Below are positions 14,046-59,692 of a stretch of DNA of 64,000 nt, in pieces. The stretch comes from an uncultured bacterium (GTDB lineage Bacteria; Bacteroidota; Ignavibacteria; OLB7), in assembly GCA_966128725.1 (NCBI GenBank), contig CBHYLN010000002.1:23711-87710 (forward strand), in the 5' to 3' direction. Position 1 is the first letter of the stretch. Each line of letters starts with the position of its first letter. The position numbers and the translations under genes are program-made. Below the pieces are notes generated by a model, which saw only the letters and a list, made by a program, of their open reading frames with translations, made no database searches and was not told the origin of the DNA.

Positions 14046-14404
14046 GCGATCTCTCCGATTTTCCCGCGGCATCGATTGCCGCATGGTTTTCACAAACGTT
14101 CTGGCGCGCCGCTTGCCTGTGTGCGATGACACACGGTCCGGCGCAATGTAACACTGCTGGCGCATGCAGCCGTGTTGGTGCCGGTCGGACATGGCATGCG
14201 CTGCAAGGTTCAACCGGGTTGGGGTGTCAGGGTCGTACAGGCTGAATTGTCACGAAACCGAACCCAAGGGCCAAGGTTGATATGCCATGGCTGGTTGTCG
14301 CGGCGGACAATGTAGCGTGTCGGCATGCCCCGATATGCTATCTTCGCGCAATTTCTCACGAAACAGTGGGCACCTGCTCACATGTTAAACGATAGGTCTG
14401 ACGT

Positions 14405-15109: not shown

Positions 15110-15125
15110 GCGCTACGCGAGCCAT

Positions 15126-32254: not shown

Positions 32255-33411
32255 ACATGCGTACATCACGATCGCGTCGTCCGCGTTGGGGGCGTACGCT
32301 GCTTGCCGGTGCGGTTGCCCTGTGCGTTGTGCTGGGCCGTTTGCTGGCGCATGGCGGCGAGGACCATGGAGACGCCGAACATGGTGCCGCCACGGCCAAC
32401 GGGCCGATGGCTACCACGATAAGCGTGGTCAAGGAGCAGCAGTTCGCGATTGGATTGCTCACCGAGCCGGCTGCCCGGCACCCGATGGGCGTTGGCATTA
32501 CCGCAACAGGGCGTGTTGTGCCGCGCACCGATGCGGTAGCCGATGTGATTCCCCCGATTGCCGGGCGTGTGGTGGGCGGTCGCCTGCCGCGCCTGGGGGA
32601 GCGTGTGCGGCGCGGAGAGGTTCTGTTCCGTGTACAGCAGGTGCTTGCACCAACCGAGCGCACGGCGCTGCGCCTGGAGCAGGTGAAAGCCAAGGCGGAA
32701 GTTGATGCGGCCCAGCGCGAGGTGGATCGATTGGTGCGTCTGGAGGGCGTTGTCGCGGCCAAGCAGTTGCTGGATGCCCGTGCCCGGCTGGCCTCGGCAC
32801 GCGAAGCAGCAACCGCCATCGCCGCCCAACTTCAGGGCGCGGGCACGGCGGTTGCCGTTGTTGCGCCAATCAGCGGAACCATCACCGCCGCCGACATCGC
32901 CGACGGTGAAATCCTTGATGCTTCGCGCCGGGCGTACAGCATCGCCAATCTCGACCACGTGTGGGTTGAAGCCGATGTGTTTGAAGCCGACCTTCCGAAA
33001 GTGCAGGGCGTGCGGGCCGTTGAGGTAACAACCCCCGCATATCCGGGCCGGACGTTCGCTGGCACGCTGTATCGCCTGGGCAGCGTTGTGGACCCCTCCA
33101 GCCGGGCGATCACCGTGCTGCTGGATGTCCGAAATCCCGACGAGCTGTTGAAGCTGAACATGAGCACGAGCGTTGTGCTGGCCGCTGGTGCGGCGCAGGA
33201 GGAGATCGCCATCCCGCAGAGCGCTCTGGTTCGGAGCGGCGCGCGTACCGTGGTGTTTGTGCATACGGCGCCCGAGGAGTTCCAGGTGCGCGACGTGCGA
33301 ACCACCGGCGCGGCTGCGGGCGGATACGTTGCGGCAAGCGGCATCGGCCTGGGCGAACGTGTTGTTGTCAGCGGCGCCCATCAGTTGAAGGCCGTCGCGG
33401 GCCTGCAATAG
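32251..33411 (+). CDS. czcB: Efflux RND periplasmic adaptor (membrane fusion protein, CzcB/CusB-like)
   Basis: ATG at 32251 (RBS GGAG). HlyD-like barrel-sandwich/beta-barrel blocks. The N-terminus (TM plus AHGGEDHGDAEHG) echoes the preceding ORF. Confidence 0.85.
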   Translation: MNMRTSRSRRPRWGRTLLAGAVALCVVLGRLLAHGGEDHGDAEHGAATANGPMATTISVVKEQQFAIGLLTEPAARHPMGVGITATGRVVPRTDAVADVIPPIAGRVVGGRLPRLGERVRRGEVLFRVQQVLAPTERTALRLEQVKAKAEVDAAQREVDRLVRLEGVVAAKQLLDARARLASAREAATAIAAQLQGAGTAVAVVAPISGTITAADIADGEILDASRRAYSIANLDHVWVEADVFEADLPKVQGVRAVEVTTPAYPGRTFAGTLYRLGSVVDPSSRAITVLLDVRNPDELLKLNMSTSVVLAAGAAQEEIAIPQSALVRSGARTVVFVHTAPEEFQVRDVRTTGAAAGGYVAASGIGLGERVVVSGAHQLKAVAGLQ

Positions 33412-36400: not shown

Positions 36401-36646
36401 CTGGGATTGGCGCACGGTGCTCCGGGCAAGGAGATTCTGCATCCGGTTGCGATTGTGATCCTCGGTGGGCTGGTTTCCTCAACCCTGCTGGATATTTTCC
36501 TTACACCGGCCGTCTTCTGGCGCTTCGGGCGCACGGCCGCGCAGCAGTACTTCGAGCGCCGTGCCGCCAGCACGGTTACCGCTGTTGCCCCAACTGCAAA
36601 CGACGAACATCCCAATACCAATACATCTATCAGGAGTGAATCATGA
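33464..36646 (+). CDS. czcA: Heavy-metal efflux RND transporter, CzcA/CusA family
   Basis: 1060 aa, 12-TM RND architecture, N-terminus MLNSLILFSLRNRPLVLAAAALLLAYG typical of the HME-RND family. Confidence 0.95.
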   Translation: MLNSLILFSLRNRPLVLAAAALLLAYGVVVLTRLPVDVLPDLNRPTVTVMTEAHGMAPEDVELLVSRPIESSMNGASGVERVRSVSSMGLSIVFVEFDWGSDLYRDRQLVAERLSAVRSSLPAEIVPQLGPITSVMGQIMLVGLSADTTSPMALRTLADFTVRRRLLTIPGVAQVTTIGGEVKQFQVVAKPSQLKAFGVSLDELEQATARASAATTGGYVEIGAQEYPIRNLARAANAADVAATAIRVSNGVPVTIGQVADVREAAAPKRGDASVNARPAVILAVEKQPDASTLELSKLVDSALAELKPSLPRDARIDAHVFRQADFIDNAIGNVEEALRDGAILVTIVLLLFLLNVRTTAITLTAIPLSMVITALVFWLFGISINTMTLGGLAVAIGEVVDDAIVDVENVFRRLRENREAERPLPALTVVYLASSEVRNSIVIATVLVVLVFVPLFALQGMEGRIFAPLGISYVTSIVASLLVSLTVTPALASYLLPRSRALGRAERDSPLVRWLKQIDRQLLERVLARPVLVMASAALLFAGAVAIIPMLGTEFLPPFNEGSLTISVVQPAGTSLSESNRIGTMVERLLASVPEVVSVARRTGRAELDEHAEGVNSSDVEVRLRPGDREQAAVLADVRARLALVPGVVINIGQPISHRLDHLLSGVRAQIAVKIFGDDLGVLRAKAEDVRRAMALVPGVVDLSVEPQVLLPQIPIAIDRVAAARYGMAPGEVAEQLETALSGRQVGAVLDGQRSFALVVRSDSAARLSLDQISALTVATPTGAHVPVRELALVEWGSGPNQILHENGQRRIVVQANVAGQSLGEVISGIKSSVASRVALPEGYFITYGGQFESQQSATRLLMLLAVMAVVGMFAVLYAHFRSARIVLQILLNIPLALVGAVVAITLTDATISVATIVGFITLTGIASRNGIMMISHYLHLMREEGEGFTREMIVRGSLERLVPVLMTALTAGLALIPLGLAHGAPGKEILHPVAIVILGGLVSSTLLDIFLTPAVFWRFGRTAAQQYFERRAASTVTAVAPTANDEHPNTNTSIRSES

Positions 36647-36849
36647 ATCACGAAACAATTGTGATTGAGGGCATGAGCTGTGGTGGCTGTGTCAACAGTG
36701 TACGCAAGGCGCTGGAGCGCCTTGAGGTTAACGTGGTGGAGGTTACCATCGGAACGGCGACGGTTGAATACGATCCCGCCGCAACTTCACGCGAAACCCT
36801 GGTGGAAGCCATTGTAGATGCGGGCTTCGATGTGCCCGCGGTTGAATGA
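36643..36849 (+). CDS. copZ: Copper chaperone, CopZ-like (single HMA domain)
   Basis: 68 aa with IEGMSCGGCVNSV (MxCxxC). Overlaps the czcA stop (ATGA coupling). Confidence 0.85.
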   Translation: MNHETIVIEGMSCGGCVNSVRKALERLEVNVVEVTIGTATVEYDPAATSRETLVEAIVDAGFDVPAVE

Positions 36850-38021
36850 TGTGTACCAAAATGAACGAACAACAGAAGCGGGAGACAGGAATGATGATTG
36901 CATCCAGAAAGTGGTTCGGGTATGACGGGCGTACCTGCTGGCGCTGGTGCTGCACGGCCATGTGCCTGGCGATGACGGTCTTTACGGTAGTTGGTTGCGG
37001 CGGTGGTGATGCTCCGAAGTCGGGATCGGCCGACTCGGCGACCGCCACGCCCGCCGCCGATGGTGACCACCATCATGCCAACGCAGCGGAGGAAGCCGCC
37101 GTGCATACACATTCCACGGATATGACGGTGACCTCCGAGCCAGCCACAATCGCGCCGGGCGTGCCGACCACGATGACAATCAATATCGTGGAGAAGAATG
37201 GCGGTGCTCCCGTACAGGCGTTTGATACGGTGCACGAGAAGTTGCTGCATATGATTGTGGTGTCGGCGGACATGACATGGTTCAACCATGTGCATCCGGT
37301 GTATGCCGGCAATGGCCGATTCAGCATCCAGATTGCGCTGCCGAAGGCTGGCGAGTACTACATGTACGCGGATTACACACCGGCTGGCAAGGAGCACGAA
37401 ATCGCACAGCACAACTTTACGGTTACCGGAAGCGCTGGCTCCGCACCCAAGGAGGCCGTGGTGGATTCGCTTGGCGGACAGCCGTGGATAGTGAAGAGTG
37501 TTGGCTCGGCCCCGGAAGGGCACCCCGAACAGGCCACCGCCGCAACGTATCAGGTTGCGTTGATGCCCATGCCCGGCCACCTCGTGGCAGGCCAGGATGC
37601 CATGCTGCATTTTCAGGTGCGTGATGCGGCGGGCAAGCCGCTTGGTGATCTTGAACCGTACCTTGGCGCAATGGGCCATGCGGTGATTCTCTCGACCGAC
37701 GGCAAGGTGTATCTGCATACACATCCGATGGAGGACGGGATGGATCACGGTACCATGAAACATGGCGGTGGCGAACACGGGGCAATGAGCAAGGCTCCTC
37801 CCGTTGGCGGCGCCAATGCGGGGACAATGGGCCGGGGCTTCGCGGCCGGGGCCGAGCAGGACAATGCCCCAGCGGCAAAGAAACCTGCCGCCAAAGGCGC
37901 GGATGTTGTCTTCCACACGAATTTCCCACTGCCAGGGCGTTATCGTGTGTGGGGCCAGTTCCAACACCGCGGCAAGATTATTACCGTGACGTATCTGTTG
38001 GAAGTTGCGCCGGCGGCATAA
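36846..38021 (+). CDS. His/Met-rich periplasmic lipoprotein (putative Cu/Ag-binding), hypothetical
   Basis: Lipobox VVGCGG. Motifs HTHPMEDGMDHGTMKHGGGEHGAMS, WFNHVHPVY and GDHHHANAAEEAAVHTH. Translationally coupled to copZ (ATGA). The start is 36846 or Met16 (36891). Confidence 0.65.
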   Translation: MMCTKMNEQQKRETGMMIASRKWFGYDGRTCWRWCCTAMCLAMTVFTVVGCGGGDAPKSGSADSATATPAADGDHHHANAAEEAAVHTHSTDMTVTSEPATIAPGVPTTMTINIVEKNGGAPVQAFDTVHEKLLHMIVVSADMTWFNHVHPVYAGNGRFSIQIALPKAGEYYMYADYTPAGKEHEIAQHNFTVTGSAGSAPKEAVVDSLGGQPWIVKSVGSAPEGHPEQATAATYQVALMPMPGHLVAGQDAMLHFQVRDAAGKPLGDLEPYLGAMGHAVILSTDGKVYLHTHPMEDGMDHGTMKHGGGEHGAMSKAPPVGGANAGTMGRGFAAGAEQDNAPAAKKPAAKGADVVFHTNFPLPGRYRVWGQFQHRGKIITVTYLLEVAPAA

Positions 38022-40477: not shown

Positions 40478-40611
40478 GCTGTTCGATTGTTCGGTGTACG
40501 AAGCATCGCCGGCGTGGCGATATAAGCGGGGAAGTTAGGCGGTGTGGCGGCTGGCTGCCTTATCAAATGCTAGGAAGTGAAATGCGGCGATGCGCATGCG
40601 CACAGCCGCAT

Positions 40612-41238
40612 TCATGCAGCGTCCGGTGGATTGATCGGTGTGGCGGCTGTGGCAATCCCACGGCGGACGCGCGACAGCGAGACATCGGTGATGCCCAGGT
40701 ACGACGCAATATGGTACAGCGGAATCCGTGCATGCAGATCCGGGAAGTTGGCCACGAAATCGTTATACCGCTCGGTTGCGTCCTGATGCAGCAGGCTGCG
40801 CGTGCGAAGCTCCTTGCCGAGCAACAACCACTCGGCCAACAGGCGCCCCAGGCGGTCGAACGCTGGATGGCGATCGAACAACGCCACGAATTCACCGTAG
40901 GGCGCCTTCAGTATCAAGGTCGGTTCCAGCGCCTGCACGCCGTACATCAGCGGGCGGTTAAGCCGATAAGCGGCCAGCGAGCCGGCAAACGTGTGTTCGG
41001 CCACGAATGCCTTGTTCCACTCGGCCCCGTTGGCGCCTACATAGTAGAAGCGCAGCAGGCCGTGGCACACGAAGTAGATATAGTGGGTGGTTGCGCCCGG
41101 CAGTACGACATGTTCGCGGGCAGCATATCGGTGCTCGGTGAAGATCGCGGCAAGGTGCGGCCATTGCTCGCCGGGCATTTGGGTCCATTGCTCAACGGCG
41201 TTCCGGAGGAGGTGATATGGGGCCATTGCGTTGTGCAT
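40612..41238 (-). CDS. Crp/Fnr-family transcriptional regulator
   Basis: cNMP-binding beta-roll followed by a C-terminal HTH (IPLYHIASYLGITDVSLSRVRR). Confidence 0.8.
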   Translation of the reverse strand: MHNAMAPYHLLRNAVEQWTQMPGEQWPHLAAIFTEHRYAAREHVVLPGATTHYIYFVCHGLLRFYYVGANGAEWNKAFVAEHTFAGSLAAYRLNRPLMYGVQALEPTLILKAPYGEFVALFDRHPAFDRLGRLLAEWLLLGKELRTRSLLHQDATERYNDFVANFPDLHARIPLYHIASYLGITDVSLSRVRRGIATAATPINPPDAA

Positions 41239-41340
41239 GCCACTGCATTTCAGGCAGTTGAGCCGGGAATAGTACCCCGGGGACAGAGCATCCGAGATGA
41301 TGTGCTGTGCCCGGGGCGTCTGAGAGGGCTGGTCTGTTGC

Positions 41341-41910
41341 TCAGTCCGCCAGCAGCGTTCGAACGCGCATCAGGGCAAACCCGAGCAGATTCTCACCCAG
41401 CCATTGCCGTGGTTCGGTTGCGGCCGGGTCGTCCTGAGCCAATCCTATTCCCCAGATCCGATCCACGGGACTGGCCTCAACCAGAATTGCCGTGCCGGTG
41501 GAACAGAGAAATCGTCGCAGAGGCTCATTCTGGTCAAATTTCGCCGCATTACCGCGTACAACCAGGGAGAATCGTTCGGCACCCCATTGCTCCTCGCGGA
41601 ATCCGCGAACCTGCCGTCCCAGGCTTTTGGCTTCGCCTGGCGTGGCCGCCTGCATGATCTTCTCGCGCGTGTCGCGATCGTTGAACATACGCGCCTTCTC
41701 GGCCATCATGAAGTGTTCCGCCGAACGATATCGAGTGCCATCCACCGTAAACTCGGCTGGCCACCACTGCGAAAGGCAGCCTTTGCCGATACTGCCGTCC
41801 GGTTGTGGGGCGTGGCCCCAAAAAAGACAGTAGTTTGGCCGTAGTCCGCTCTCTATTGCGCTAACAAGTGCCGGTACATCCTGTATCGCATCATACTCAC
41901 TCAACGTCAT
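41341..41910 (-). CDS. NADAR-family protein (YbiA-like, DUF1768)
   Basis: 189 aa with conserved ...FWGH... and SAEHFMMAEKARMF... blocks. Confidence 0.8.
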   Translation of the reverse strand: MTLSEYDAIQDVPALVSAIESGLRPNYCLFWGHAPQPDGSIGKGCLSQWWPAEFTVDGTRYRSAEHFMMAEKARMFNDRDTREKIMQAATPGEAKSLGRQVRGFREEQWGAERFSLVVRGNAAKFDQNEPLRRFLCSTGTAILVEASPVDRIWGIGLAQDDPAATEPRQWLGENLLGFALMRVRTLLAD

Positions 41911-42345
41911 ATCTCCGTTTTTCGCGCAAAAAGCGTGTTAGCCGATTCGCTGAACGATTCATGCATCGTAAGCGATGGAGGGTAAACATACGATGCCGCC
42001 GTGGTTGCGCACAGTCCGTTTCGCAGTCTGCCTGCCCAAATGCGTCGGTGCAGGTGCCTTTCCGGGCCAAATTTCGGTATTGAAGGAGTCTAATTGTTCG
42101 GGGCGGTGGGTCGTGCTGCGACATTTCGCGCGAACGTTGGTCTTATCTCTCGGTGTGCAAATCGTACTCGCCGCACACACCCCATGCGGCGATACGGGTT
42201 CCATACTGAGAGGAAACCTGATATCTTCTGTTGCCGAGTTGGTACGGCATCAGTAGCTCTACAGGAAGGGGGGAGTTTCGTGCAGACATTTCCTTATGGT
42301 CGGTAAGCGGCGGCAGCCGCATTCTGTGGCCATTTTCGTTCACAC

Positions 42346-43029
42346 GTGTCAGCGATGCGAAAAGCGGAACACTATACTCCAGATGCTGCCTCGGCTGCGC
42401 GGGATTCGCGTGATGAGGCTTTGTTCGCACGGTTTGTAGCCGGCGACGAGCGAGCATTCAAGGAGTTATACTCTCATTACGAGCGTCCGCTGATCCTTTA
42501 CTGCCGTCACATGCTCTCCACGGAACAGGAGAGCCAGGATGTATTCCAGGAAGTTTGGCTTCGTGTGATACGCATCCGGACACGCGGCGAACGAGTGGAG
42601 AGATTCCGCGCGATGCTCTTTACAATCGCTCGCAATGCGGCGATCAATCATCTTCGAAATCGTCAACACGCTCAGTACCCTGTCTCACTAAGCCAGGTGA
42701 ACATCGAGAGCAACCCCGCTCTCGCGACGAGCGAAAACTTCGACGAGATGGAAGATCTGGTTAATCGGGCGTTGAAGCGGCTTCCCGACTCTCAGCGTGA
42801 AGCGTTTGTGCTCCATTCGATGCTGGGATATACGTTCCAGGAGATTGCCGATATGCAGGGCGTGACGATGACCGGGGCGAAAACCCGCGCATTCCGAGCT
42901 CGCTGCTACCTGCGCACCCTATTGTCGAACTGGCTCGGGTTGGCCGAGGATGCCGATGACAATGTCACCGCGTCCAAGCCATCCGAACAATCACCCCAAT
43001 TTGAGTCAGAAGATCATGAAAACGGCTGA
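42346..43029 (+). CDS. RNA polymerase ECF-type sigma factor (sigma-70 regions 2 and 4)
   Basis: LYCRHMLSTEQESQDVFQEVWLRV (region 2) and EIADMQGVTMTGAKTRAFRARCYLR (region 4 HTH). The start is GTG 42346 or ATG 42355. Confidence 0.85.
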   Translation: MSAMRKAEHYTPDAASAARDSRDEALFARFVAGDERAFKELYSHYERPLILYCRHMLSTEQESQDVFQEVWLRVIRIRTRGERVERFRAMLFTIARNAAINHLRNRQHAQYPVSLSQVNIESNPALATSENFDEMEDLVNRALKRLPDSQREAFVLHSMLGYTFQEIADMQGVTMTGAKTRAFRARCYLRTLLSNWLGLAEDADDNVTASKPSEQSPQFESEDHENG

Positions 43030-43783
43030 CCTCATATCGTCCTTTCTGAACAATGAGATGACTCTGGAACAGGAGCGCCAGTTCCTGCTCTCGGTGGCCG
43101 CAAGCGATTCGCTTCGGTTATCGTTGAAATCTCAGTTCATGCTCGATCGGATTGTCTCCGATCAGGTGCTTCACGCACATGTGCCGGAGCCGCTCCGCGC
43201 ATCAATCTTTGCGCAGGCGGCTGCTGTGTCGGTGCCTGCGCATTCCATCTCCAGCAGTATTCCGTCGGAACCCGCGGCCGAATCGCGCATTGCGCGGTTG
43301 TTTGGTCGTGCCGCGATGATGGCGGTTCTTGTTGTTGGTGGGTACGCCGCGGGATATTTCTCGCAAGCCTCGCCCGAAGCCAGCGGTATGCCGGCGGCAA
43401 ATGCACCGGCAGTGACCACCCCCGCGCAATCGTTGCCGGCGGTGGCCCCACAGGTCGATCCGGCAACGTCGGCAGCGCCTGATGCCGAGCCTGTGCAAGC
43501 CAAGGCGGCACAGGCGGTCGAACCGGGTCATCGCGTCGCCAATCGCACCGCGACGGTGTCGCGGCCGGAGCATCGTGTGGATGCCGCGCCTGCGGCCGGT
43601 GTGCAGGCCAATACCGAGCCTGCAACCAATGCAACGGGCACCACGGTTAACGCCGACGGCAGTAATGGCGCCGAGCACAGCCCGCAGGGGAGTGCCCGGT
43701 TCCAGCAAACAATTACGAAGCCTTCCAAGTCGCCTGATCAGGGCTCCGTTACACAACAGCCAAGGAGCCCCCAGACTCCATGA
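43017..43783 (+). CDS. Putative anti-sigma factor (single TM, Pro/Ala-rich periplasmic tail)
   Basis: ATG at 43017 gives MKTADLISSFLNNEMTLEQERQFLL...; TM AAMMAVLVVGGYAAGYF. Overlaps the sigma factor gene by 13 nt and the next gene by 4 nt. Confidence 0.55.
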
Positions 43784-45948
43784 GCGATGGCCCCACGTTT
43801 TGGGGGTGGCGTTGGGAATCCGTGCTGAGTCGTCTCATTCTGCTTTGCGCGCTTGTAGTCTCACCCCTGGCTCAGTCGCTGGCGCAGCCTTTGTCTCCGG
43901 CACCCGACATCGATCGGGTGCCGGATAGTTCGTTGATAGGCCCTGCTGTTCGCCTCGGTATCGTGCCTATGCTGGGAATGGTGCAACAGCTTGCCTCGTT
44001 CGACCGCTGTACCGTTGGCGCATCGTGTGGCGCATACCAAGCCACTTCCCGCGGCGAGCTAGGCATCGCCGTTCGTCTGGAAATGCCGTTTCGTATCCAC
44101 CCCAACATTCTTGCAACTGCCTCGCTTGCCTACGCGCGTAATGCGCTGGAATTGCTTACCCCGATCGATTCAGCGCTGGAAGGGCGGCGCCCGGATAACA
44201 CGGCAACCTGGATTACCAAGCAAACCAGCCTGCGGGCTTCGATGCCGTCGTTTTCAGTAGGGGTTGGCCTGGCTTTTGAACCCGTCCGTGGGTTGCGGTT
44301 TGGGCTTAAGCAGAACGTGAGCATTGTCAACACGGCGCGCCCAACCGTGGAGCAAATGCTTCTAGGTCCGGAGGAGGCTGTGTTCGCGGCCACGGGAACC
44401 GATCGAGCGCCGTTGGAGAATGCGAACGAGCCGGTGTTCAGGGCAGTGGTGCCGCGTGGTGCGCTGTGGGCTGGTTGGCAATTGCCGATCGGTTCGCGCT
44501 TCTCGCTGCAGCCCTCCGCCGGCATGGAGTTTACCGAATCGTCGATTGCCTCGAATGTTTCATGGTATGAAGTCGGGTTCGGCGCAGGTCTTGGGCTGGT
44601 CATCGATCTTGGCCCAAAGCCTGTGGACGCGGTGCCAGTGCCGGTTATAGCCGAGATTGGGCGCCAGGCTTCGGACACCGTCCGTCCGATCCAGCCGGCC
44701 AGGGATACCGTGGTGCCGGTTGTACCACCGAAGTACATCCTGCGTGCCAGCGTTGTTGTCAAGGGTATCGACGCGAAAGGGAACGAATACGATGATCCGG
44801 TGATCGAAATTGAGGAATCGCCCTGGAGCGAATCGGTGCCGGTGTTGCCGTTCATCTTTTTCGACAGCGCCGACGCGACAATTCCATCGCGGTACGTCCA
44901 ACTCGACGAGTTCTCGCCCCCGGAGCGCTTTCATGTGGATTCGCTGGCGGCAATCTCGCCTTTGAACATTCATTGGCAGATGTTGAACGTTGTTGGCGAG
45001 CAGTTGCGGGCCAACCCACGGCAACGACTGACGATTGCCGGCACAACCGCGGGCGATGAGCAGGGGGGCGATGCAACCCTTGGTGCCAGGCGGGCGCAGG
45101 CGGTGCAGCGTTACCTGATCGACCGGTGGCGGATCGATCCAAAACGTATAACCGTGACTGTGCTTGCACATCCTTCGTCTCCATCAAATGAATTGACCCG
45201 CGAAGGCCGCGCCGAAAACCGACGTGTGGAGCTGCGATTTGATGTTGGTGAACTGAGCCGCCCAATCCTGATTCGCCGGTTGGCCACCGTTGCGTCGCCG
45301 CCAGCGGTACAGTTCTATCAGAACATCGAGGCGGACACGGACATCGTTTCATCGTATGTGGTGGTTGAGCAGGGAGGCAAGGAACTGCTGCGCTTCGTTG
45401 GCAGCAACGACACCGGGCCGAAACCGCAGCAGAAGTTCTGGTCACTTGGCGACATGCGCGTCAACCGCGACCTGACGCCCATTCGTTATCGCTCGGTTAT
45501 TCGCGATGCGGTTGGGCAGGAGGTGGTGACCGAGGGTTCGTTTCGTGTGCTGGAACGCGCAACCCGTCGCCCAGAAGAACGCAAGGCGGAGCTGATCGAG
45601 TTCAACATTGTTGGCTTCGAGTTCAATTCCGCGGAACTGCGTCCGCAGCATTTTGTGCAACTGGAGGAGGTCGCCAAGGTTCTGACCTCGGGTGCGGATG
45701 TGTCGATTACCGGCTTTACCGATCGTACGGGTGATCCGGGTGGCAATGTGCAGTTGTCGCAGGCGCGCGCGCGCGCGGTGCTCGGGGCCTTGCGAACGAT
45801 GCGCGAACGCGCTGGTGAATCGATGCCGACCAAGCTCTCGGTGGTGGGATTGGGAAGCGATCAGCAGGCATATGATAACGATTTGCCGGAGGGGCGCCTG
45901 CTATCGCGCATGGTTCGTGTAACCGTGGCCCGTCAGTCGCGACGATAG
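43780..45948 (+). CDS. OmpA-family protein with two C-terminal OmpA-like peptidoglycan-binding domains and a large N-terminal (beta-barrel-like) region
   Basis: Two OmpA-like blocks (TIAGTTAGDEQGGDATLGARRAQAVQRYLI, and ITGFTDRTGDPGGNVQLSQARARAV ...R). Co-transcribed with the sigma/anti-sigma genes. Confidence 0.7.
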   Translation: MSDGPTFWGWRWESVLSRLILLCALVVSPLAQSLAQPLSPAPDIDRVPDSSLIGPAVRLGIVPMLGMVQQLASFDRCTVGASCGAYQATSRGELGIAVRLEMPFRIHPNILATASLAYARNALELLTPIDSALEGRRPDNTATWITKQTSLRASMPSFSVGVGLAFEPVRGLRFGLKQNVSIVNTARPTVEQMLLGPEEAVFAATGTDRAPLENANEPVFRAVVPRGALWAGWQLPIGSRFSLQPSAGMEFTESSIASNVSWYEVGFGAGLGLVIDLGPKPVDAVPVPVIAEIGRQASDTVRPIQPARDTVVPVVPPKYILRASVVVKGIDAKGNEYDDPVIEIEESPWSESVPVLPFIFFDSADATIPSRYVQLDEFSPPERFHVDSLAAISPLNIHWQMLNVVGEQLRANPRQRLTIAGTTAGDEQGGDATLGARRAQAVQRYLIDRWRIDPKRITVTVLAHPSSPSNELTREGRAENRRVELRFDVGELSRPILIRRLATVASPPAVQFYQNIEADTDIVSSYVVVEQGGKELLRFVGSNDTGPKPQQKFWSLGDMRVNRDLTPIRYRSVIRDAVGQEVVTEGSFRVLERATRRPEERKAELIEFNIVGFEFNSAELRPQHFVQLEEVAKVLTSGADVSITGFTDRTGDPGGNVQLSQARARAVLGALRTMRERAGESMPTKLSVVGLGSDQQAYDNDLPEGRLLSRMVRVTVARQSRR

Positions 45949-46161
45949 ACACGTGTGCGAACACGGAATAGCGGTTTTTGAGCAAAAAATGACGATTCGT
46001 TGCCGCCGCGGCATTCGAATTCGTGGCGGATCAACCTTGTTTCGCGCAGATGATTTAGCGATCTTAACGGAGATTGCGTTGGTGTATGGTTCCCCCCCGT
46101 ATCCCTGCGTGTCGTTCCGGCGTATCGAATCGACAAACAATGCTGTACACACGCTTGCAAA

Positions 46162-49100
46162 GTGCGTTACGCCAATACCGATACTGCTGAAAACCGTGAT
46201 ATCTCTGGTCTGATACGACGCCTCTCGCGCCGTGTTCTCCTGAGTGTTGTGGCCTTGCTATTGCTGGTCGCCGCGAACGCCGGTGCGCAGAATGGCCGGT
46301 GGGATTGGTCGGCGGTAACGTATCGTGGCCCATCGAAGCATGGAACGCGTCTGTTCGTGGATCGTTGGGGCCATACGCATGTTGTGTGGGTAGCGCAGTC
46401 GATTTGGTCCTCCTTGAGCGACTGGAATTCGCAGGACCCGAATAATTCTCGTGCCGGCTATCAGCTGTTCTACAGTTCGGATGCATCGGGGGTTTTCAGT
46501 GCTCCCATCCAGGCAACAGAAGCGGTCACTTCCGGCAGCCTGTTTCTTCGGACCAATCAGCCGGCGCCGGTAGTGTTTCAGATTGACCAGCAAGGTGCCG
46601 TGCATCTTGCATACCTGGCGAACTCCGATGGCCATCCCAGCCTGTTTTATACCTCGAATGCGTTGGGGGCTGGTACGATGGGGCAGAACGTGCGCCGCCA
46701 GTTCATCACCGATAAGCCACCGATTACCGATCTCGCGCTCAGCACGGATACCCTTGGGTTCGACATGGCCGTCGACACGCTCGGCTCGGCGCACTTCACG
46801 TGGGTGGAGTGGGTTGGCTCGGTGGCCAAGGTGTATTACACTTCCCCGCGTGAATTCTGGCAGCCGCTGCAGGTTGCGGAGTTCGAGTGTTCGGGGATGA
46901 CGGGAGCATGCCGTGTAGGCAAGCCGGATATCGAAGTTGACCGGCGAGGCCGGGCAGTGATCGTGGTTCGGAACGTGGTCAAGGGAGCGGGTGGGATTCG
47001 GCTGATTCGCCAAAACAAGCCGGGCGTGTTCGATACTCCGCGGTGGCTTCAGGCCTTCCCCTATGGTGATGTACTTGATGGGGCCGCGGCGTCCGATCTT
47101 CGTGTGCGGATGGCGATCGATTCCTCCAACCGCATTCATCTCGTGCTTCCATACGTTGACCGCTCGACCCCGGGCCGTAATCGGTTGCTGTATGTGATGG
47201 CCGATACCACTTCGCGCGATTCGGCGCTGGCCAATGATCCGGCAAACGTTATCGGCGATGCACGTCCGCTGACCGATGCTCCTCTGGATGCCGCACCACT
47301 CGATTTTGATATCTCCTACAACGCTGGCGACAGAATCGTGGTTGGCTGGACAACGCGAACCACCGGCGCGCCGGTTCGTATTGGATTCGCCGAATTGGCA
47401 CCGGCGGGCCAGCTCCCGGTGCCAGCATGGCAAACAACGGCCTTCAGCATGGATGCGCTTGGGCGCTTCGGCTCCAATGCGCCGTTATGGAAAGATGAGA
47501 TTCGTGTCGGCATGTCGGGCGATCGTATTGTGCTGGGCGGTCTCCACGAGCCGCGCAACGCTGCTCCTTCGGAAAAGGGTGTTTCGCATGTGGCAATCGT
47601 GCGCCGCACCTCGATCGCGCCCCGCATCCGCTACATTCATCCCGATGCCGCTGCGCCGGGGATGAACGTTGGCGTTGAGGTATTCGCTCATACCGATGAG
47701 CGTGGAAGTTTCGGTCGCGATACGCTGGGTGGCGCTGCGGTGGAGCTTGCCAATCCCGGGGATGCGGCCCGTGTTATTGTTGGCCCAACGGTTGTCAGCT
47801 GGGACGGGCGTCTCGCTTCGGCGATGATCTTCGTGAAGCCTGGGGCTGCTGCTGGTCCGGTTCCGCTTCGCGTCCGGGTTGGATCGTCAATCAGCAATGT
47901 TGATACGTTCTACGTTGTTAACCCAAGCCATGTTGGCAACCTCTCCGGCGGCGGTTTCATTGCTGCCCCGCGCTCGCGCCGTGGGGTAATGGTTGTTGAT
48001 TCGCTTATCCTGTCGGCAGGGGTCTTCAAAATCGATACCGCCGATACCGATCCGTTGACGCCCGGCAATCAGGGATTTCTGCCGGTGACGATTCTCGCCA
48101 GCGGGCCGGTTCGGATCGAGACGAACGCAACGCTCAGCGTTTCCGCCTTTGTGGATCCCATCCGCAAAGTCACCTATGCCGGCCCTGGCGGTGGCGGTGG
48201 TGGCACGGGCGGTCTGTTGACCGGCGGCTCCGGCTATACTGGCGGTGGCGGTGTTGTGTTCCAAAATGGCAGATGGCTGATGGGCAACAGCACCGGCGCT
48301 GGCAGCGAACACTCCGGTTTCTGGAATGGCGGCGGCGGGCTTAACGGAGTGCCGGGTGGAATCTCATTTTTTGAGGCACCGTCAGGTGGCGGAACTGGGC
48401 ACCCGTTTGGCGCTTCGGGTCTTTTCGGCCAGATACTTCCAACCATGCCGGTTGAGCGTGACACCGGCGGCTATGCCGGCGGAACTGCCGGGGGCAATGT
48501 TTATCTGGTTTCCATCAACAGTAATGTTGCAGCCGGCGGTGGTGGTGGCGGTAATGCCTCCAATGGCGTCAAGGGCAGCGACAACAGCGGCTTGAACCAC
48601 GACAATGCCGGTCGTGCGGTCGGTAGCCGGCAACTGGTGCCGTTCGCCGGCGGATCCGGTGGCGGCGGCGGCGCATCCTCGGCGTTGCAATCAAACGGTG
48701 GTTCCGGCGGTGGTGCCATTTCGATCGTATCGTTCGGTGGTATCAGCGTGTTCGGCGCCATCACCGCCGATGGGTGTGATGGTATCGGCGGTTCCAATCG
48801 CGACGCGGGTGGTGGCGGTGGCTCGGGTGGATCGATCATGCTTGCCGCGGTCGATTCGGTGTTTATCGGCCCGCTGGCGCAACTCTCGGTCAATGGTGGC
48901 AACGGTGGGCGCTCGGAGCTTCCTGGTGCGCATGGTGGCGCCGGCGGTATTGGGCGGATCCGTGTGGACGGGCGTGTTGCCGGTGGCGGGGCGATTGACC
49001 TTAGGAACTACAACACATTCAACGGACCGGGCGGCCCAAGCGGTTCCTCGATGCAGGCCCGGCAGTACTCGGTGATTACCGGCTATGCCACGCCCGACAG

Positions 49101-51960
49101 TATGATCGCGGTATGGAAATACGCCGAAGGCAGCACTTGGACCTCTTCGGCATGGCGCAAGGCGGATGCCCAAGGGGTCTGGCGCGACACCCTTACCGCG
49201 GCCGATGCAGCGCGCGGGCGCCTGTACGTTGTTGCGATGCAGCGTGTTAACGGCGCCTCGAATGCAAACTTCGCGTACCAGCCTTCCTGGGTGATGTCGC
49301 CCAGCAGCGCGGTGATGATCGGCCTTCCAAAGTTGACCGTTGCCAATGACACGGTGGACTTCGGCTGCATCCACTATACGCTGTGCAAGGATACGGATGT
49401 TGTGATCGCCAACCCCGGCGACCTTGGCGATCTTGTGCTTTCCAACATTCGCATCGAGGGGCCTGATTCGGCTCGATTCGTGTTGAGCAATGCACGTGTC
49501 AACCGAGTTGTGCGGGCCGGCACGTCCGATCCCATCACCATATCCTTCTGCCCTGGCGGTAAGGGAGTCTATCAGGCCGAGCTGGTGATGGAGACAAATT
49601 TGTCGTGGCAGCCGCAGCGTCGCATTCGTTTGGAAGGATGTGGCACCAGTGGTTTGTGGTCGCCAACGGTGGCTGCGTTGGATCTTGGGCGGGTATGCCC
49701 GGGCCAGTGCTCCGAGCAACGATTGACGGTGACCAACAGCGGCAATGCTCCGCTTGTTGTTGGCGCGCTGGGCTTCGATCCGGGTGTGGTGAGCGCTTCG
49801 ATAATATCTGGCGCCACGCCTGCTATTGCTCCCGGAACCTCGCGCGCCATCGTTCTGCGCCTGTGCCCGAAGCGCTTTGTGCCGGATTCGATGGTGATTT
49901 CGCTGGCTGGCAACTCGGTTGATGGTCCGCTTACGGTTATCGCACGCGCCGCCAATGCACGTCCGCAGCTCGACATCCCGTTCGATGTGGACTTCGGTAA
50001 GGTGTTCCTGGGCGGTGCCGAGCGCTGCAGCACGGCGACCATTGTTATCCGCAACCTGAGCACGGTTGTTCCGATGCGGATCAGCAACCTTGAAACCTCG
50101 TCGCCGCAGTTCACGATTCTGTCGCCGGCTCCTGGCTCCTACGATGTTGCTCCGGGAGGCTTCCTGCCGGTTAACGTCACCTTCTGTCCTGGCATTGCCG
50201 GGGTATACGGTGATGTGCTGCGCATGCAGATAGTGTCCGATGACTGCCGCACCGATACGGTTGTGCAACTGCGCGGCATTGGCGCCGAGCGCCAGGCCCG
50301 TTACGTTATCGAGGAACCCGGCCCATCGATCGGCACGTTGCAGTTCGCGCCCACGCTGGTTGGCGAAACCTCGCCACGGCGCGAGATCGTTATTCGCAAT
50401 GTTGGCGACGCCGAGGGCGATCCCATCAGTGCCACCGTAAGTGATGGTGCCTCGGAGTTCTCCGTGGAGACGAACACGATCCGTGGTATTCCTGCCGGTG
50501 ACGTCGCCCGCCTTGGCGTTGTGATGCATCCAACAGCCGCAGGCATCCGCAGTGGGCGCGTGGAGCTTTCCTCGGTGCAGCCCATCTGGGGCGATGCAGT
50601 ATTGCTGAATGGCCTGGCCACGCAGCCCGGGCTGCAGATCGATGCAAGCGTGATCGACCTGGGTGAGATATGTGTGGGCGAACAATCGTCGCCCGCAACG
50701 CTGGAGATCTCCAACAACGGGACTTCACCGGCAACAATTACCGGCATGGCTCATGGTGGACGCTTCCTGGTTTCAGGATTGCCGGTGGCATTCCCGTATG
50801 CGCTTGTCCCGGGTCAGAAGCTGCACATTGAGTTCCGAGCCCTTGCCGTTGACGAAGGGCCGATAGCCGATGAATTGGTTATTGAACAGGGCGGCGGCAT
50901 GCCGTTCCGAGTTACGTTGACCGCGCAGGGTATTCGTGGGCATCTGCTTACCAGCCAGTCGGCATTTGATATGGGCTGCATCCCAACGGGTGATGTAAGC
51001 CGGAGCATGTTTGTGCTGACCAATACGGGCAAGTGCCCGCTAACGGTTTCCGGGTTCACGGGGCTTGACAATGGATTCTTCGAGATAAGCCCGTCGGGCG
51101 CTCCGATCGTACTGCAACCGGGCCAGCAGCAGTCCTATACCGTACAATATCAGGCCGGAACAGCCGATGCGTTTACCACGGTGTCGGTGGTAAGCAATGC
51201 GCCCGAGGCAATCACGTTGTCGCTTACGGGCAGGGTGTGTAATTCGGCCGAACGGCGATTTGCGATAGCGTTGCCGTCCGATGCGACCGCGGCGGTTGGC
51301 GATACGTTCAGCCTGCCCGTCGTCGCAACGCTTACGCCTGCGGCTTCGTTCGACCTGTCATACGCGATAACGCTTTCCTATGCCTACGATCTGTTGGTAC
51401 CACGGATTGGTGCGCGTTACGATGCAGTGCCGATTGCAAGCCTGGCAAGCGGAACGATAAGCGATGCGGTTGCCATGGAGGAGATTACGCCCGGCCGACT
51501 TCTGCTTACCGGTACCATTCGGGCCGGTGCCACATCGGGTGTGCTGGCCCGCATCCCAATGAAAGTTCTGTTGGGATCAACGTATGCGACGCCTATCGCA
51601 GTAGCCGGCCTGCAGACCCAGCCGGCAATGCTGTACGGGGGCCAGAATGGCTTCTTCCGGGCAACTGGATGCGACACGGCCGGCGTGGTTGTAACCGGCA
51701 ATTATCTGCTTCGGCAGAATGTCCCCAACCCATTCCATCCAAGCACGGTGATTAGTTATACGATTGCCCGGCAGGAGCGAGTGGTGCTGAATCTGTACGA
51801 TGCCAGTGGCGCACTCATCAGGACATTGTTCGACGCGGTGCAGCCTGCTGGCAGCCACGAATTCCATTTTGATGCGTCGGGTATTCCAAGCGGTGTCTAC
51901 ACGTATGAGATTGTCAGTGGTCGGTATCGTGCCGCGCGCAGAATGGTGTTGACGGACTGA
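46162..51960 (+). CDS. Giant (1932 aa) T9SS-secreted surface protein: N-terminal domain, Gly-rich beta-helix-like repeat region, six tandem Ig-like choice-of-anchor-D/ASH-type domains, and a T9SS C-terminal sorting domain
   Basis: GTG start with an RRLSRRVLLSVVALLLLVAANAGAQ signal. Gly-rich block at ~aa 675-935. Six ~105-aa repeats with the pattern DFG.V..G......I.N.G...L.IS...SP.F......P..L.PG....V.F.P...G.Y. The C-terminus LLRQNVPNPFHPSTVISYTI...LYDASGALIRTL...GSHEFHFDASGIPSGVYTYEIVSG is a textbook T9SS CTD. Confidence 0.8.
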   Translation: MRYANTDTAENRDISGLIRRLSRRVLLSVVALLLLVAANAGAQNGRWDWSAVTYRGPSKHGTRLFVDRWGHTHVVWVAQSIWSSLSDWNSQDPNNSRAGYQLFYSSDASGVFSAPIQATEAVTSGSLFLRTNQPAPVVFQIDQQGAVHLAYLANSDGHPSLFYTSNALGAGTMGQNVRRQFITDKPPITDLALSTDTLGFDMAVDTLGSAHFTWVEWVGSVAKVYYTSPREFWQPLQVAEFECSGMTGACRVGKPDIEVDRRGRAVIVVRNVVKGAGGIRLIRQNKPGVFDTPRWLQAFPYGDVLDGAAASDLRVRMAIDSSNRIHLVLPYVDRSTPGRNRLLYVMADTTSRDSALANDPANVIGDARPLTDAPLDAAPLDFDISYNAGDRIVVGWTTRTTGAPVRIGFAELAPAGQLPVPAWQTTAFSMDALGRFGSNAPLWKDEIRVGMSGDRIVLGGLHEPRNAAPSEKGVSHVAIVRRTSIAPRIRYIHPDAAAPGMNVGVEVFAHTDERGSFGRDTLGGAAVELANPGDAARVIVGPTVVSWDGRLASAMIFVKPGAAAGPVPLRVRVGSSISNVDTFYVVNPSHVGNLSGGGFIAAPRSRRGVMVVDSLILSAGVFKIDTADTDPLTPGNQGFLPVTILASGPVRIETNATLSVSAFVDPIRKVTYAGPGGGGGGTGGLLTGGSGYTGGGGVVFQNGRWLMGNSTGAGSEHSGFWNGGGGLNGVPGGISFFEAPSGGGTGHPFGASGLFGQILPTMPVERDTGGYAGGTAGGNVYLVSINSNVAAGGGGGGNASNGVKGSDNSGLNHDNAGRAVGSRQLVPFAGGSGGGGGASSALQSNGGSGGGAISIVSFGGISVFGAITADGCDGIGGSNRDAGGGGGSGGSIMLAAVDSVFIGPLAQLSVNGGNGGRSELPGAHGGAGGIGRIRVDGRVAGGGAIDLRNYNTFNGPGGPSGSSMQARQYSVITGYATPDSMIAVWKYAEGSTWTSSAWRKADAQGVWRDTLTAADAARGRLYVVAMQRVNGASNANFAYQPSWVMSPSSAVMIGLPKLTVANDTVDFGCIHYTLCKDTDVVIANPGDLGDLVLSNIRIEGPDSARFVLSNARVNRVVRAGTSDPITISFCPGGKGVYQAELVMETNLSWQPQRRIRLEGCGTSGLWSPTVAALDLGRVCPGQCSEQRLTVTNSGNAPLVVGALGFDPGVVSASIISGATPAIAPGTSRAIVLRLCPKRFVPDSMVISLAGNSVDGPLTVIARAANARPQLDIPFDVDFGKVFLGGAERCSTATIVIRNLSTVVPMRISNLETSSPQFTILSPAPGSYDVAPGGFLPVNVTFCPGIAGVYGDVLRMQIVSDDCRTDTVVQLRGIGAERQARYVIEEPGPSIGTLQFAPTLVGETSPRREIVIRNVGDAEGDPISATVSDGASEFSVETNTIRGIPAGDVARLGVVMHPTAAGIRSGRVELSSVQPIWGDAVLLNGLATQPGLQIDASVIDLGEICVGEQSSPATLEISNNGTSPATITGMAHGGRFLVSGLPVAFPYALVPGQKLHIEFRALAVDEGPIADELVIEQGGGMPFRVTLTAQGIRGHLLTSQSAFDMGCIPTGDVSRSMFVLTNTGKCPLTVSGFTGLDNGFFEISPSGAPIVLQPGQQQSYTVQYQAGTADAFTTVSVVSNAPEAITLSLTGRVCNSAERRFAIALPSDATAAVGDTFSLPVVATLTPAASFDLSYAITLSYAYDLLVPRIGARYDAVPIASLASGTISDAVAMEEITPGRLLLTGTIRAGATSGVLARIPMKVLLGSTYATPIAVAGLQTQPAMLYGGQNGFFRATGCDTAGVVVTGNYLLRQNVPNPFHPSTVISYTIARQERVVLNLYDASGALIRTLFDAVQPAGSHEFHFDASGIPSGVYTYEIVSGRYRAARRMVLTD

Positions 51961-52018
51961 TCTGGTGGCTGTAATGCCCGAGCGTACCGATCACGCACAT
52001 CGCGTGTCAAGTTTCAAT

Positions 52019-52047
52019 GGGGTGGCAGTAGATGCCGCCCCTTTTTA
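52019..52047 (+). terminator. Rho-independent terminator of the giant gene, overlapping the stop codon of the convergent GT9 gene
   Basis: GGGGUGGC-AGUAGAU-GCCGCCCC followed by UUUUU. Confidence 0.6.
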
Positions 52048-53118
52048 GTTCGTGCCCAGCAGTTCCATCACGGCATCGGTGATCTCCTGCGGTGACAACG
52101 TTGATGTATCCGATGATGGGGCCGTGATCGAGCGGTGCGCAACCCCAAGCGGGCCCCAGCCGGCCTGGTTTACCGCCGGTGTGTACAATGCCACGGTTGG
52201 GGTGCTGGTCGCCGACGCAATATGTACGATCGATGTATCGGGTGTGACGATTACGCGGGCCATTGCGATTGCCGCCACCGCAACACCAAGACTGGGTGTT
52301 GCCAGTGCCGTGGCGCCGCTGCTTGTGGCAATTGCCGCTACACGCTCGCCAGCTTCCGGCGCGCCCATAACCACAACGGTATAACCCAGTTGTCCGATAC
52401 GCCGGGCCAGCTCGGCATTCAGCTCGTCGGGCAGTTCGCGGTCGGCCGTGCCCGACGAGATGTTCAGCATCACAAACGTATGCTCGGCAATCCCGAGCGC
52501 TGACAGGGCCGTATGCGCTGCGATGCGGTCGGCATTCGATATCGGGATACTGTACCCTGGCCGTTCAATCGGGTGGTCGAAGGCAAATCCGTTTGCGAAC
52601 ACCAGGTAGGTGCGGTCGGCGAAATGGGGCGCGGCGGTGTCCACCGCATGGTCGAACAAGCGCTCGTGCCCCACTACGTGTTGCCCGATGGTTCTTCCCT
52701 TGGGCGTAAGGATTGCGCTCAGCAGGGCGGGCAGGGTTGTTTGTCCCAACACGAGCTGCAGCGTTGCATCAAACGATCGGCGACGGCATGCCCGAACAAT
52801 GCCCAGCCTGTTCAGGAATGAGCCACCCCACACCCACACATGCGAGATACGAGGATCGTGCCTGAAGAACGCGGCGTTTGCCGGCGATGCCAATACGTCG
52901 ATCTCGACCCCTGGAGCAACCGTGTGCAGGGCCTCGATAATCGGAGTGCTTATTACGGCATCGCCAAGGCGATCGTGCCGGATAAGCAGCACGCGGCGCA
53001 GCGATGCGGCGGCTAGGAGCGGTTGGCCCGTTGCGCGCCCTGCCAGCGCGGCCAGCAGCCGAAGGATAACCGCGCGGGCACCGTGGGGAGTATGTCTGGT
53101 TTGCGTCACCGGGCGCAA
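52045..53118 (-). CDS. Glycosyltransferase family 9 (LPS heptosyltransferase-like)
   Basis: RVLLIRHDRLGDAVISTPIIEAL N-terminal signature and the GT-B fold pattern. Confidence 0.65.
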   Translation of the reverse strand: MRPVTQTRHTPHGARAVILRLLAALAGRATGQPLLAAASLRRVLLIRHDRLGDAVISTPIIEALHTVAPGVEIDVLASPANAAFFRHDPRISHVWVWGGSFLNRLGIVRACRRRSFDATLQLVLGQTTLPALLSAILTPKGRTIGQHVVGHERLFDHAVDTAAPHFADRTYLVFANGFAFDHPIERPGYSIPISNADRIAAHTALSALGIAEHTFVMLNISSGTADRELPDELNAELARRIGQLGYTVVVMGAPEAGERVAAIATSSGATALATPSLGVAVAAIAMARVIVTPDTSIVHIASATSTPTVALYTPAVNQAGWGPLGVAHRSITAPSSDTSTLSPQEITDAVMELLGTN

Positions 53119-59499: not shown

Positions 59500-59692
59500 G
59501 TAGGCAGAGTGTCGATGAAAGCCCGTGCGGCGTGTCCGATGCGATGCGCGAGGAATATACTTCGGCGATGATGCCAATGCGAGTGCCGCGTTTGCGCAGC
59601 CATGATATGCGAAGCGCCCTAACTGATCTCCAGCCAGGGCGCTCCGTATCAATACCAGAACATGAATGTGACAACGGCATGGGCCGCCTGGA

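Follow-up and report, generated by a model that had tools for sequence, protein, structure and literature searches.

Models of the type IX (T9SS) secretion system derive from a few cultured Bacteroidia and Flavobacteriia, and they sort its cargos by their C-terminal domain (CTD). Type A cargos travel by a general shuttle to lipopolysaccharide or the medium, and type B cargos travel by a private carrier and are kept on the cell. The general shuttle is PorV, type A cargos are reported to have no cargo-specific neighbour gene, and dedicated carriers serve type B cargos only (PMC12618676, PMC12635249). Among type B systems, the PorE-PorP-PG1035 complex and the Flavobacterium johnsoniae clusters of type B cargo, PorP/SprF-like barrel and PorE-like wall binder are proposed to be static wall-anchored complexes (PMC9143113, PMC12618676). 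Here we describe a four-gene cluster in a 64,000-nt stretch (hereafter the window) of contig CBHYLN010000002.1 from an uncultured bacterium of the Ignavibacteria. Its genes encode an extracytoplasmic function (ECF) sigma factor, a probable anti-sigma factor, an outer-membrane barrel protein with two OmpA_C domains and a 1932-aa surface protein, the giant, that ends in a type-A-like CTD. With moderate confidence, we read the cluster as one transcription unit in which the barrel protein would be a dedicated anchor, and possibly a carrier, that ties the giant to the cell wall. The type B complexes are the closest precedent, and the present system would work likewise. This finding rests on comparative genomics and structure prediction in uncultured lineages.

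The four genes are consecutive open reading frames (ORFs) on the + strand. The sigma gene runs 14 nt into the anti-sigma gene, which in turn shares 4 nt (ATGA) with the barrel gene, and exactly 213 nt separate the barrel gene from the giant. An earlier reading of the DNA without database searches (the sequence-only reading) had placed all four genes almost exactly here; only the anti-sigma start moves, from 43017, which gives an out-of-frame span of 767 nt, to the ATG at 43016. For comparison, we scanned one genome per species, retained the best 80 of at least 335 matches to the barrel family that were confirmed in the first 600 pattern hits and analysed 89 loci of relatives (L001, L002 and so on), calling ORFs and building local hidden Markov models (HMMs) in each. 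The same four genes occur in the same order in three further non-redundant loci, L001, L002 and L010 (L003 is identical to L002 and was counted once), and this recurrence means that the arrangement is not due to chance. Sigma orthologs in these loci match with E values of 8e-133 to 3e-74, and an ortholog of the giant, 1883-1927 aa long, stands at the corresponding place in each. Because L010 keeps the cluster amid different downstream flanking genes, the unit has stayed intact through at least one rearrangement. The sequence-only reading had named the co-occurrence of the four genes across FCB genomes as a check. The four-gene order is confined to one small clade, made up of the window, L001, L002/L003 and L010, and more than 50 other pairs of cargo and barrel genes occur without it. 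What does extend across these loci is the pair of barrel and cargo, and we turn to its two members.

The 722-aa product of the third gene begins with a signal peptide, followed by a barrel (aa 58-276), an immunoglobulin (Ig)-like domain (aa 321-360) and a first OmpA_C domain (aa 360-487). Its C-terminal half holds a β-sandwich (aa 496-592) and a second OmpA_C domain (aa 603-719). Pfam OmpA (PF00691) matches the protein in two stretches with 81 bits against a cut-off of 27.2, in agreement with the two peptidoglycan-binding domains of the sequence-only reading, which did not include the N-terminal β-barrel predicted by AlphaFold2 (AF2). The second OmpA_C domain bears the TD...N..LS..RA..V motif (GFTDRTGDPGGNVQLSQARARAV) and the first a degenerate form, as read from the sequence; both are putative peptidoglycan binders. 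Foldseek places the OmpA_C domains next to Acinetobacter baumannii OmpA, OprF and Pal, with target-normalised TM-scores (TMt) of 0.79-0.85 to 3td3, 5u1h and 4g4w. The full-length AF2 model, built from a nine-sequence alignment, has a mean predicted local distance difference test score (pLDDT) of 76, and the barrel modelled alone reaches a pLDDT of 86.5 and a predicted TM-score (pTM) of 0.74. The predicted barrel has about 10-12 strands, with ~11-12 strand elements over ~220 residues in the AF2 model. Its Foldseek neighbours are the small outer-membrane barrels OmpA, OmpT, Pla, Ail and OpcA, the best of them 8-10-stranded, with query-normalised TM-scores (TMq) of at most 0.46, and the OMP_b-brl_2 model matches five of nine family members. 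A cysteine, Cys83 (window 44026-44028), is invariant in all nine aligned members, including those that have no cargo neighbour, and is predicted by model and topology to lie in extracellular loop 1.

Taken together, the 722-aa protein is, on its predicted structure, an outer-membrane barrel with a double wall-binding tail and neither a PorP/SprF protein nor a PorE. A PorP/SprF-like identity was rejected, as none of nine family members matches PF11751 at E ≤ 1 and the strands are too few, about 10-12 compared with 14. The 14-stranded FadL-type barrels also fit poorly, with TMq values of 0.15-0.29 for FadL and TodX. PorE was rejected too: with NF052230, whose cut-off is 600, the protein reaches 25.6 bits, and only over the OmpA_C part. 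The TPR, WD40 and CRD domains of PorE gave no match in the 722-aa protein, and its signal peptide, read from the sequence, has no lipobox cysteine, unlike the lipoprotein signal of PorE. The overall plan resembles OmpA and OprF, in which a small N-terminal outer-membrane barrel precedes a periplasmic OmpA_C domain. Unlike these proteins, however, the barrel exceeds the eight strands of OmpA, two OmpA_C domains are split by extra β-sandwich domains, and several paralogs occur per genome, each beside a large CTD cargo gene.

The proposed signal cleavage sites of the barrel protein (SLA|QPLSP, window 43780-43900) and of the giant (AGA|QNGRW, window 46162-46300), both placed by eye, would each leave an N-terminal glutamine. 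Such a residue after cleavage is the 'Q-rule' of Bacteroidetes Sec substrates (PMC5837995).

The giant consists of a signal peptide, N-terminal repeats, a Gly-rich region, six Ig domains, a cohesin-like domain and the CTD. The N-terminal repeats look propeller-like by eye and match no model; the NCBIfam model choice_anch_D scores 160 bits in six stretches, Pfam HYDIN_VesB_CFA65-like_Ig scores 94 bits, and AgmC_N matches weakly at aa 790-938. The assignment of the CTD to the type A family is borderline in the giant itself, where TIGR04183 (cut-off 23) scores 23.7 bits over the full length and 29.3 bits over the last 140 aa, and PF18962 (Por_Secre_tail) scores 18.9, below its cut-off of 27. Of the partner cargos of the barrel family, 45 of 49 match TIGR04183 at E ≤ 0.01, and neither the giant nor any of the 49 matches the type B model TIGR04131. 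The giant is a putative T9SS substrate. Like cargos of the standard type A route, it is a Sec-exported protein whose very C-terminus is a CTD of this family.

In the relatives' loci, the cargos adjacent to a family barrel have in common a ~150-aa domain that immediately precedes the CTD, with a terminal cysteine conserved in 50 of 51 (Cys1837 in the giant). When 50 of these domains are combined into a profile, it matches cohesins of solved structure (2vn5_A, E 4.5e-8; 1g1k_A, E 1.3e-7), and the match to 2vn5_A spans positions 16-146 of 150, or 131 of the 150. In this near full-length match, the domain resembles the cohesins of cellulosomal scaffoldins. It differs from them in that it occurs as one copy, immediately ahead of a T9SS signal and in a lineage unrelated to theirs, in that no dockerin partner was found, and in that single sequences stay below the Pfam threshold: Cohesin (PF00963) gives 14.9 bits (E 0.031) on the window domain alone against a cut-off of 24.1, and sub-threshold matches in 11 of 50 single domains. 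A profile search with the cohesin-like profile returned no match at E ≤ 1e-8.

This domain separates the cargos that stand next to a family barrel from those that do not. An HMM of the pre-CTD domain, with the CTD excluded, matches 56 of 57 barrel-adjacent CTD proteins and 9 of 57 others; five of these nine belong to the same operon or had been missed through over-extended ORF starts. With duplicates removed and start calls corrected, 55 CTD proteins with the domain are adjacent to a family barrel and 4 are not, compared with 0 adjacent and 42 not adjacent among those without the domain (Fisher p = 3e-24). As a control, we picked 80 metagenome loci by a generic CTD motif. Their 113 CTD proteins include two weak cohesin-like matches, and no family barrel was found near any of the 113.

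The window also encodes a second CTD protein (11428-13191, 587 aa), which matches the local CTD HMM and has no Pfam match. It has neither a cohesin-like domain nor a barrel/OmpA neighbour, consistent with the two-class pattern. A disulfide between barrel Cys83 and cargo Cys1837 was considered and largely rejected, since in 46 of 50 cysteine-bearing cargos a probable partner within the same protein lies 132-167 aa or 14-43 aa upstream; the other four have none.

The coupling can also be counted from the barrel. Among the non-redundant family genes shorter than 850 aa, 53 of 77 have a directly adjacent CTD gene on the same strand. The neighbouring CTD proteins are mostly 650-2070 aa, the gaps between cargo and barrel genes are mostly -4 to ~100 nt, and 4-nt overlaps of the two genes occur in many loci. 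Dedicated PorP/SprF carriers likewise lie beside their cargo genes, a functional parallel and not family membership. These counts make the OmpA-type protein a genuine conserved genetic partner of type-A-like CTD cargos, as the sequence-only reading had held, and full-text literature searches returned no description of such a barrel/OmpA partner, in line with its remark that the pairing is undescribed, nor of a cohesin-like domain before a CTD. The usual order is cargo then barrel, the reverse of that in the window, and barrel-cargo-barrel, cargo-barrel-cargo and a barrel preceded by three cargos also occur; one metagenome-assembled genome (MAG) holds at least four cargo-barrel pairs. The pair survives these changes in gene order, which supports the coupling of the two families. 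Overall, the barrel and its cohesin-plus-CTD cargo form a conserved gene pair of Kapaibacteria and Ignavibacteria.

Two of the compound arrangements recur in similar form. In L005, L013, L025, L044 and L077 (~3000-13000), a cargo of 1440-1480 aa is sandwiched between two barrel/OmpA genes; a ~370-aa gene follows in L005, where it encodes a GT4 glycosyltransferase, and in L013, L025 and L077, and L044 lies at a contig edge. The L005 cargo has VWA and WD40 repeats, and one sandwich record is labelled Melioribacter roseus, a cultured species. In L026, L056, L069, L075, L078 and L079 (~6200-15200), a ~1035-aa cargo, a barrel/OmpA gene and a ~1235-aa cargo form a triple, with gaps of a few nt in most and of 355 nt downstream in L079. 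In these triples, one barrel may serve two cargos.

The family as a whole is large. A barrel-only profile matches 1851 representatives (50% identity) at E ≤ 1e-10, and the top 150 matches are mostly 640-750 aa, a length that suggests the same architecture. The names in public records go no further than "OmpA family protein" and "outer membrane beta-barrel protein". Close relatives are few in sequence searches, and a deeper profile search gave only the same eight together with generic OmpA proteins. The retained matches are mostly from MAGs that carry the label Kapaibacteria, Ignavibacteria or Chlorobiota. The others are ~950-aa Desulfobacterales proteins that share the double-OmpA half only (L053, L054, L059-L061, L063, L066 and others). 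These align at query residues ~342-716, have a different N-terminus, and have a CTD neighbour in 1 of 16 cases. The most distant members (L007, L008, L009 and L083; ~25% identity) lie beside an ABC transporter, an HlyD-like adaptor and an outer-membrane efflux protein (OEP), not beside a CTD cargo. Their neighbourhoods suggest a different or ancestral role of the barrel/OmpA architecture.

The first two genes of the cluster point to its regulation. The sigma factor has regions 2 and 4 without region 1.1 or 3, as in group 4, and it matches Sigma70_r2, Sigma70_r4_2 and Sigma70_ECF with 48, 44 and 26.7 bits. With the general ECF model TIGR02937 it reaches 78.9 bits, well above the cut-off of 42.9, which confirms the earlier assignment to the ECF class. 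The protein reaches the cut-off of none of the named ECF equivalogs, the best being PRK12513 at 112 against 206 bits, and Sig70_bacteroi1 gives 91 against 126. The protein would have 227 aa from the GTG at 42346 or 224 aa from the ATG at 42355, and the ATG is the more likely start because the L001 ortholog begins at the corresponding codon.

The second gene lies directly 3' of the sigma gene, overlaps it and encodes a predicted single-pass protein, as is usual for class I anti-sigma factors. The protein is predicted to have a cytoplasmic N-terminal domain of ~90 aa, to cross the membrane once at residues ~95-117 and to end in a periplasmic tail of ~140 aa rich in Pro, Ala and Thr, which is of low complexity and so poorly conserved that the L002 ortholog aligns over about its first 130 residues only. 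No Pfam or NCBIfam model matches the window protein even at E ≤ 5, two orthologs give sub-threshold zf-HC2 matches (E 0.03-0.17), and no Cys or His motif of the HxxxCxxC type found in class I anti-sigma factors is present. From position and topology, it is a probable anti-sigma factor; this much of the earlier assignment stands, supported by weak similarity and by no model match. The same layout of a sigma gene followed by a single-pass protein gene occurs in L001, L002 and L010 and also in L041, L012 and L004. The single-pass proteins of the latter three have N-terminal motifs and one transmembrane segment that look alike by eye, and phmmer at E ≤ 10 found no link between them and the window protein. 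Their genes overlap the sigma gene by 4 nt in L041 and L012 and follow it after a 33-nt gap in L004. In L004 the sigma/anti-sigma pair lies ~3 kb from the cargo-barrel pair, and in L041 and L012 the two pairs are divergent.

The four syntenic loci all contain, in register upstream of the sigma gene, the core TG[CT][GA]ACA-N16-GTCT (window 42117-42143) of a promoter-like motif that lies ~210 nt 5' of the sigma start codon. In a scan of 2.9 million positions with a position weight matrix (PWM), the four sites rank as the top four, a result that is circular in that the PWM was trained on them. The sigma factor would use this site. A group 4 sigma gene, an overlapping gene for a single-pass membrane protein and an upstream motif of the 'AC-rich -35, GTC -10' type are also the features of pairs with autoregulated promoters such as RpoE-RseA and SigW-RsiW. 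Unlike those systems, no anti-sigma domain model is matched, the zinc motif is absent, the periplasmic tail is of low complexity and the operon continues into barrel and giant cargo genes.

Between promoter and start codon, RNAalifold predicts a small hairpin from three sequences only (window, L001 and L010), with eight pairs, three of them compensatory in L010, and a loop, CACACCCCA, conserved in L001 and L010. The leader of ~200 nt as a whole has z = -1.9, and a scan of 41500-52500 against Rfam gave nothing credible and no family for the hairpin.

Downstream, the cluster reads as continuous. Terminator scans of the spacer between the barrel gene and the giant found no site in the window, L001 or L002, and the corresponding spacer in L010 is at most 67 nt. 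The giant is followed by a 9-bp stem with seven G-C pairs and then TTTTT, and an equivalent 9-bp hairpin follows the L001 giant. In the simplest reading, the cluster is probably a single operon run from the sigma promoter. A further hint comes from L041, where a 21-nt inverted repeat (6500-6598, 81% complementary) lies between the divergent sigma/anti-sigma and cargo-barrel operons. By eye, each copy holds a -35-like element and, ~14 nt further, a -10-like element, one facing each operon. Of all the results, this one hints most strongly that cargo genes are driven directly by this sigma family.

How these parts might work together can be outlined as follows. The transcription unit would start at the ECF-type promoter and end at the terminator after the giant. 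Until an envelope cue frees it, the sigma factor would be kept at the inner membrane by the single-pass anti-sigma factor; once free, it would increase the expression of its own operon, and in this clade the sigma/anti-sigma pair would set the expression level of the whole unit. Barrel and giant would act as a pair. The 722-aa protein would sit in the outer membrane by its barrel and grip peptidoglycan with its two OmpA_C domains, and the barrel would most likely recognise the cohesin-like domain and the CTD, the mark of this cargo class. The giant would leave by the T9SS and be held at the surface by the barrel, so that a very large adhesin-like protein would be tied to the wall. The proposed outcome, a static wall-tethered surface complex, is the one proposed for PorP/SprF with PorE (PMC9143113, PMC12618676), where the T9SS cargo gene likewise stands beside the gene of its own outer-membrane barrel and an OmpA_C module is attached to the barrel. 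The differences are that barrel and wall binder are here one polypeptide with two OmpA_C domains, that the barrel is unrelated and has no PorP_SprF match, that a cohesin-like domain precedes the CTD of the cargos and that the cargo signal is type-A-like (TIGR04183) instead of type B. The standard type A route has its PorV shuttle and PorU/PorZ/PorQ attachment to anionic lipopolysaccharide; here, by contrast, a private barrel gene is tightly linked to one cargo subclass. The sequence-only reading had proposed a circuit that controls or anchors a giant surface protein. Its second verb fits the architecture, as a barrel with two peptidoglycan-binding domains suggests anchoring. Its first is borne out in part, by the conserved ECF-type promoter 5' of the sigma gene, by terminators after the giant and none before it, and by the L041 element that faces both ways.

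Several results weigh against this reading. Type A CTDs are thought to need PorV only, and a dedicated partner would therefore have no obvious job; the barrel itself is unlike PorP/SprF in profile (PF11751), strand number and fit to FadL. No CTD neighbour was found for 24 of the 77 family genes, some of which lie beside ABC/HlyD/OEP genes. All 89 loci were collected through the barrel, so the coupling counts start from the barrel side, and the cohesin-like HMM was trained on barrel-adjacent cargos. As for regulation, sigma genes lie within 10 kb in only 11 of the 89 loci, which is not clearly enriched and, by a rough estimate, about the chance level for the density of ECF genes in Bacteroidota. 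The ECF-dependent promoter that the sequence-only reading had expected in 45949-46161 was not found: neither regular expression nor PWM detected a site like that of the sigma gene there or in the orthologous spacers of all four syntenic loci. A scan of the region with the sigma-70 consensus, which may not be the one these organisms use, gave no promoter-like site either. The spacer does contain a block conserved in the window and L001 and not in L002 or L010. By eye it has -35/-10-like elements that resemble those of the sigma promoter and are set 5 nt further apart, and it passes neither the regular expression nor the PWM. It could be an internal or independent promoter, an attenuator, or a regulatory or binding site.

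The alternative that survives best makes the barrel a secretion helper. As SprF does for SprB, it would gather cohesin-plus-CTD cargo at the T9SS translocon and then release it or hand it over to type A attachment. The same genomic coupling would fit, the very secretion of type B cargos depends on their cognate carrier (PMC12618676), and type-A-like CTDs are normally cleaved off. We nevertheless consider a carrier or shuttle of this kind unlikely: two peptidoglycan-binding domains would immobilise the barrel, which suits a fixed anchor better than a recycling shuttle, and the type B system pairs PorE-like wall binders with static complexes.

Cell-surface signalling, which the sequence-only reading had also suggested, is improbable. 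The barrel would sense the giant or a ligand bound to it, signal to the anti-sigma tail and free the sigma factor, as in FecA-FecR-FecI. The 4-nt overlap of the anti-sigma and barrel genes suggests matched synthesis, the anti-sigma candidate has a periplasmic tail that could receive a signal, and L010 keeps the four genes amid different neighbours. The FecIRA sense of the proposal nonetheless fails on content, as none of the four proteins matches TonB_dep_Rec, Plug, STN or FecR, leaving no TonB-dependent transducer, N-terminal signalling domain or FecR domain among them. The low complexity and poor conservation of the tail also speak against it, as does the lack of an adjacent sigma/anti-sigma pair at most barrel-cargo pairs. 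About equally doubtful is a link by co-regulation only, in which sigma factor, anti-sigma factor and OmpA protein form an envelope-integrity unit and the giant is independently transcribed with no physical link: it would suit the 213-nt spacer, with its L001-conserved block and no sigma-type promoter, and the family members that have no cargo neighbour, but it leaves unexplained the subclass-restricted adjacency (55/59 versus 0/42), the 4-nt cargo/barrel overlaps and the survival of the pair through reordering.

If the barrel is instead the anchor that we favour, the consequences reach beyond one clade. An unannotated barrel family of ~1850 representatives, coupled to one type-A-like cargo subclass, runs against a sharp line between type A and type B and suggests that deep-branching Bacteroidota hold very large surface adhesins differently. 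Tentatively, and with less confidence than in the anchor itself, we propose that a third mode of attaching T9SS cargos to the cell may exist in Kapaibacteria, Ignavibacteria and their relatives, by a Cys-clamped cohesin-like adaptor and private, wall-bolted barrels in place of lipopolysaccharide, in one clade under its own ECF pair. If true, the rule that type A cargos use a general shuttle and only type B cargos a dedicated carrier would fail across the phylum. From the coupling one can also derive a rule for annotating several thousand proteins whose present label is just 'OmpA family protein', and the sigma/anti-sigma link, if true, would be a case in which an ECF pair serves one giant surface protein alone.

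Table 1. Features of the four-gene cluster, with positions in the window.
Feature	Position	Strand	Evidence
ECF-type promoter-like motif, TGCGACATTT-N11-TGGTCTTATC	42117..42147	+	Conserved upstream of sigma gene
Small leader hairpin, 8-bp stem UCGCCGCA/UGCGGCGA, loop CACACCCCA	42168..42192	+	RNAalifold
ECF (group 4) sigma-70 factor	42346..43029	+	Sigma70_r2, Sigma70_r4_2, TIGR02937
Probable single-pass anti-sigma factor, 255 aa	43016..43783	+	Position, topology, weak similarity
Predicted outer-membrane barrel / double OmpA_C protein, 722 aa	43780..45948	+	Pfam OmpA, AF2, Foldseek
Conserved spacer block between OmpA gene and giant	46033..46069	+	Common to window and L001
Giant secreted surface protein (putative T9SS substrate), 1932 aa	46162..51960	+	choice_anch_D, HYDIN-type Ig, TIGR04183
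Cohesin-like domain (giant aa 1682-1838), ends in Cys1837	51205..51675	+	Local HMM, cohesin profile
T9SS type-A-like CTD (giant aa 1855-1929)	51724..51948	+	TIGR04183
Intrinsic-terminator-like hairpin and T tract	52019..52051	+	59 nt past giant stop codon

The cluster is flanked by ordinary chromosomal genes, which include those for a GT9 glycosyltransferase, a metallo-beta-lactamase-fold protein and a NUDIX protein, with ParA/ParB downstream. No T9SS core gene was found among the window ORFs scanned. Three ORFs have no Pfam match: 36846-38021 (391 aa), 40567-41844 (425 aa) and 57757-59652 (631 aa). The 425-aa ORF lies directly 5' of the sigma leader, where it is not conserved in L001, L002 or L010. 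Elsewhere in the window, a TonB-dependent receptor with a carboxypeptidase-regulatory-like N-terminal domain is encoded on the - strand (26480-28708). It is followed by a resistance-nodulation-division (RND) efflux operon that consists of an OEP (30161-31537), an HlyD-like adaptor (31678-33411) and an AcrB-type pump (33464-36646).

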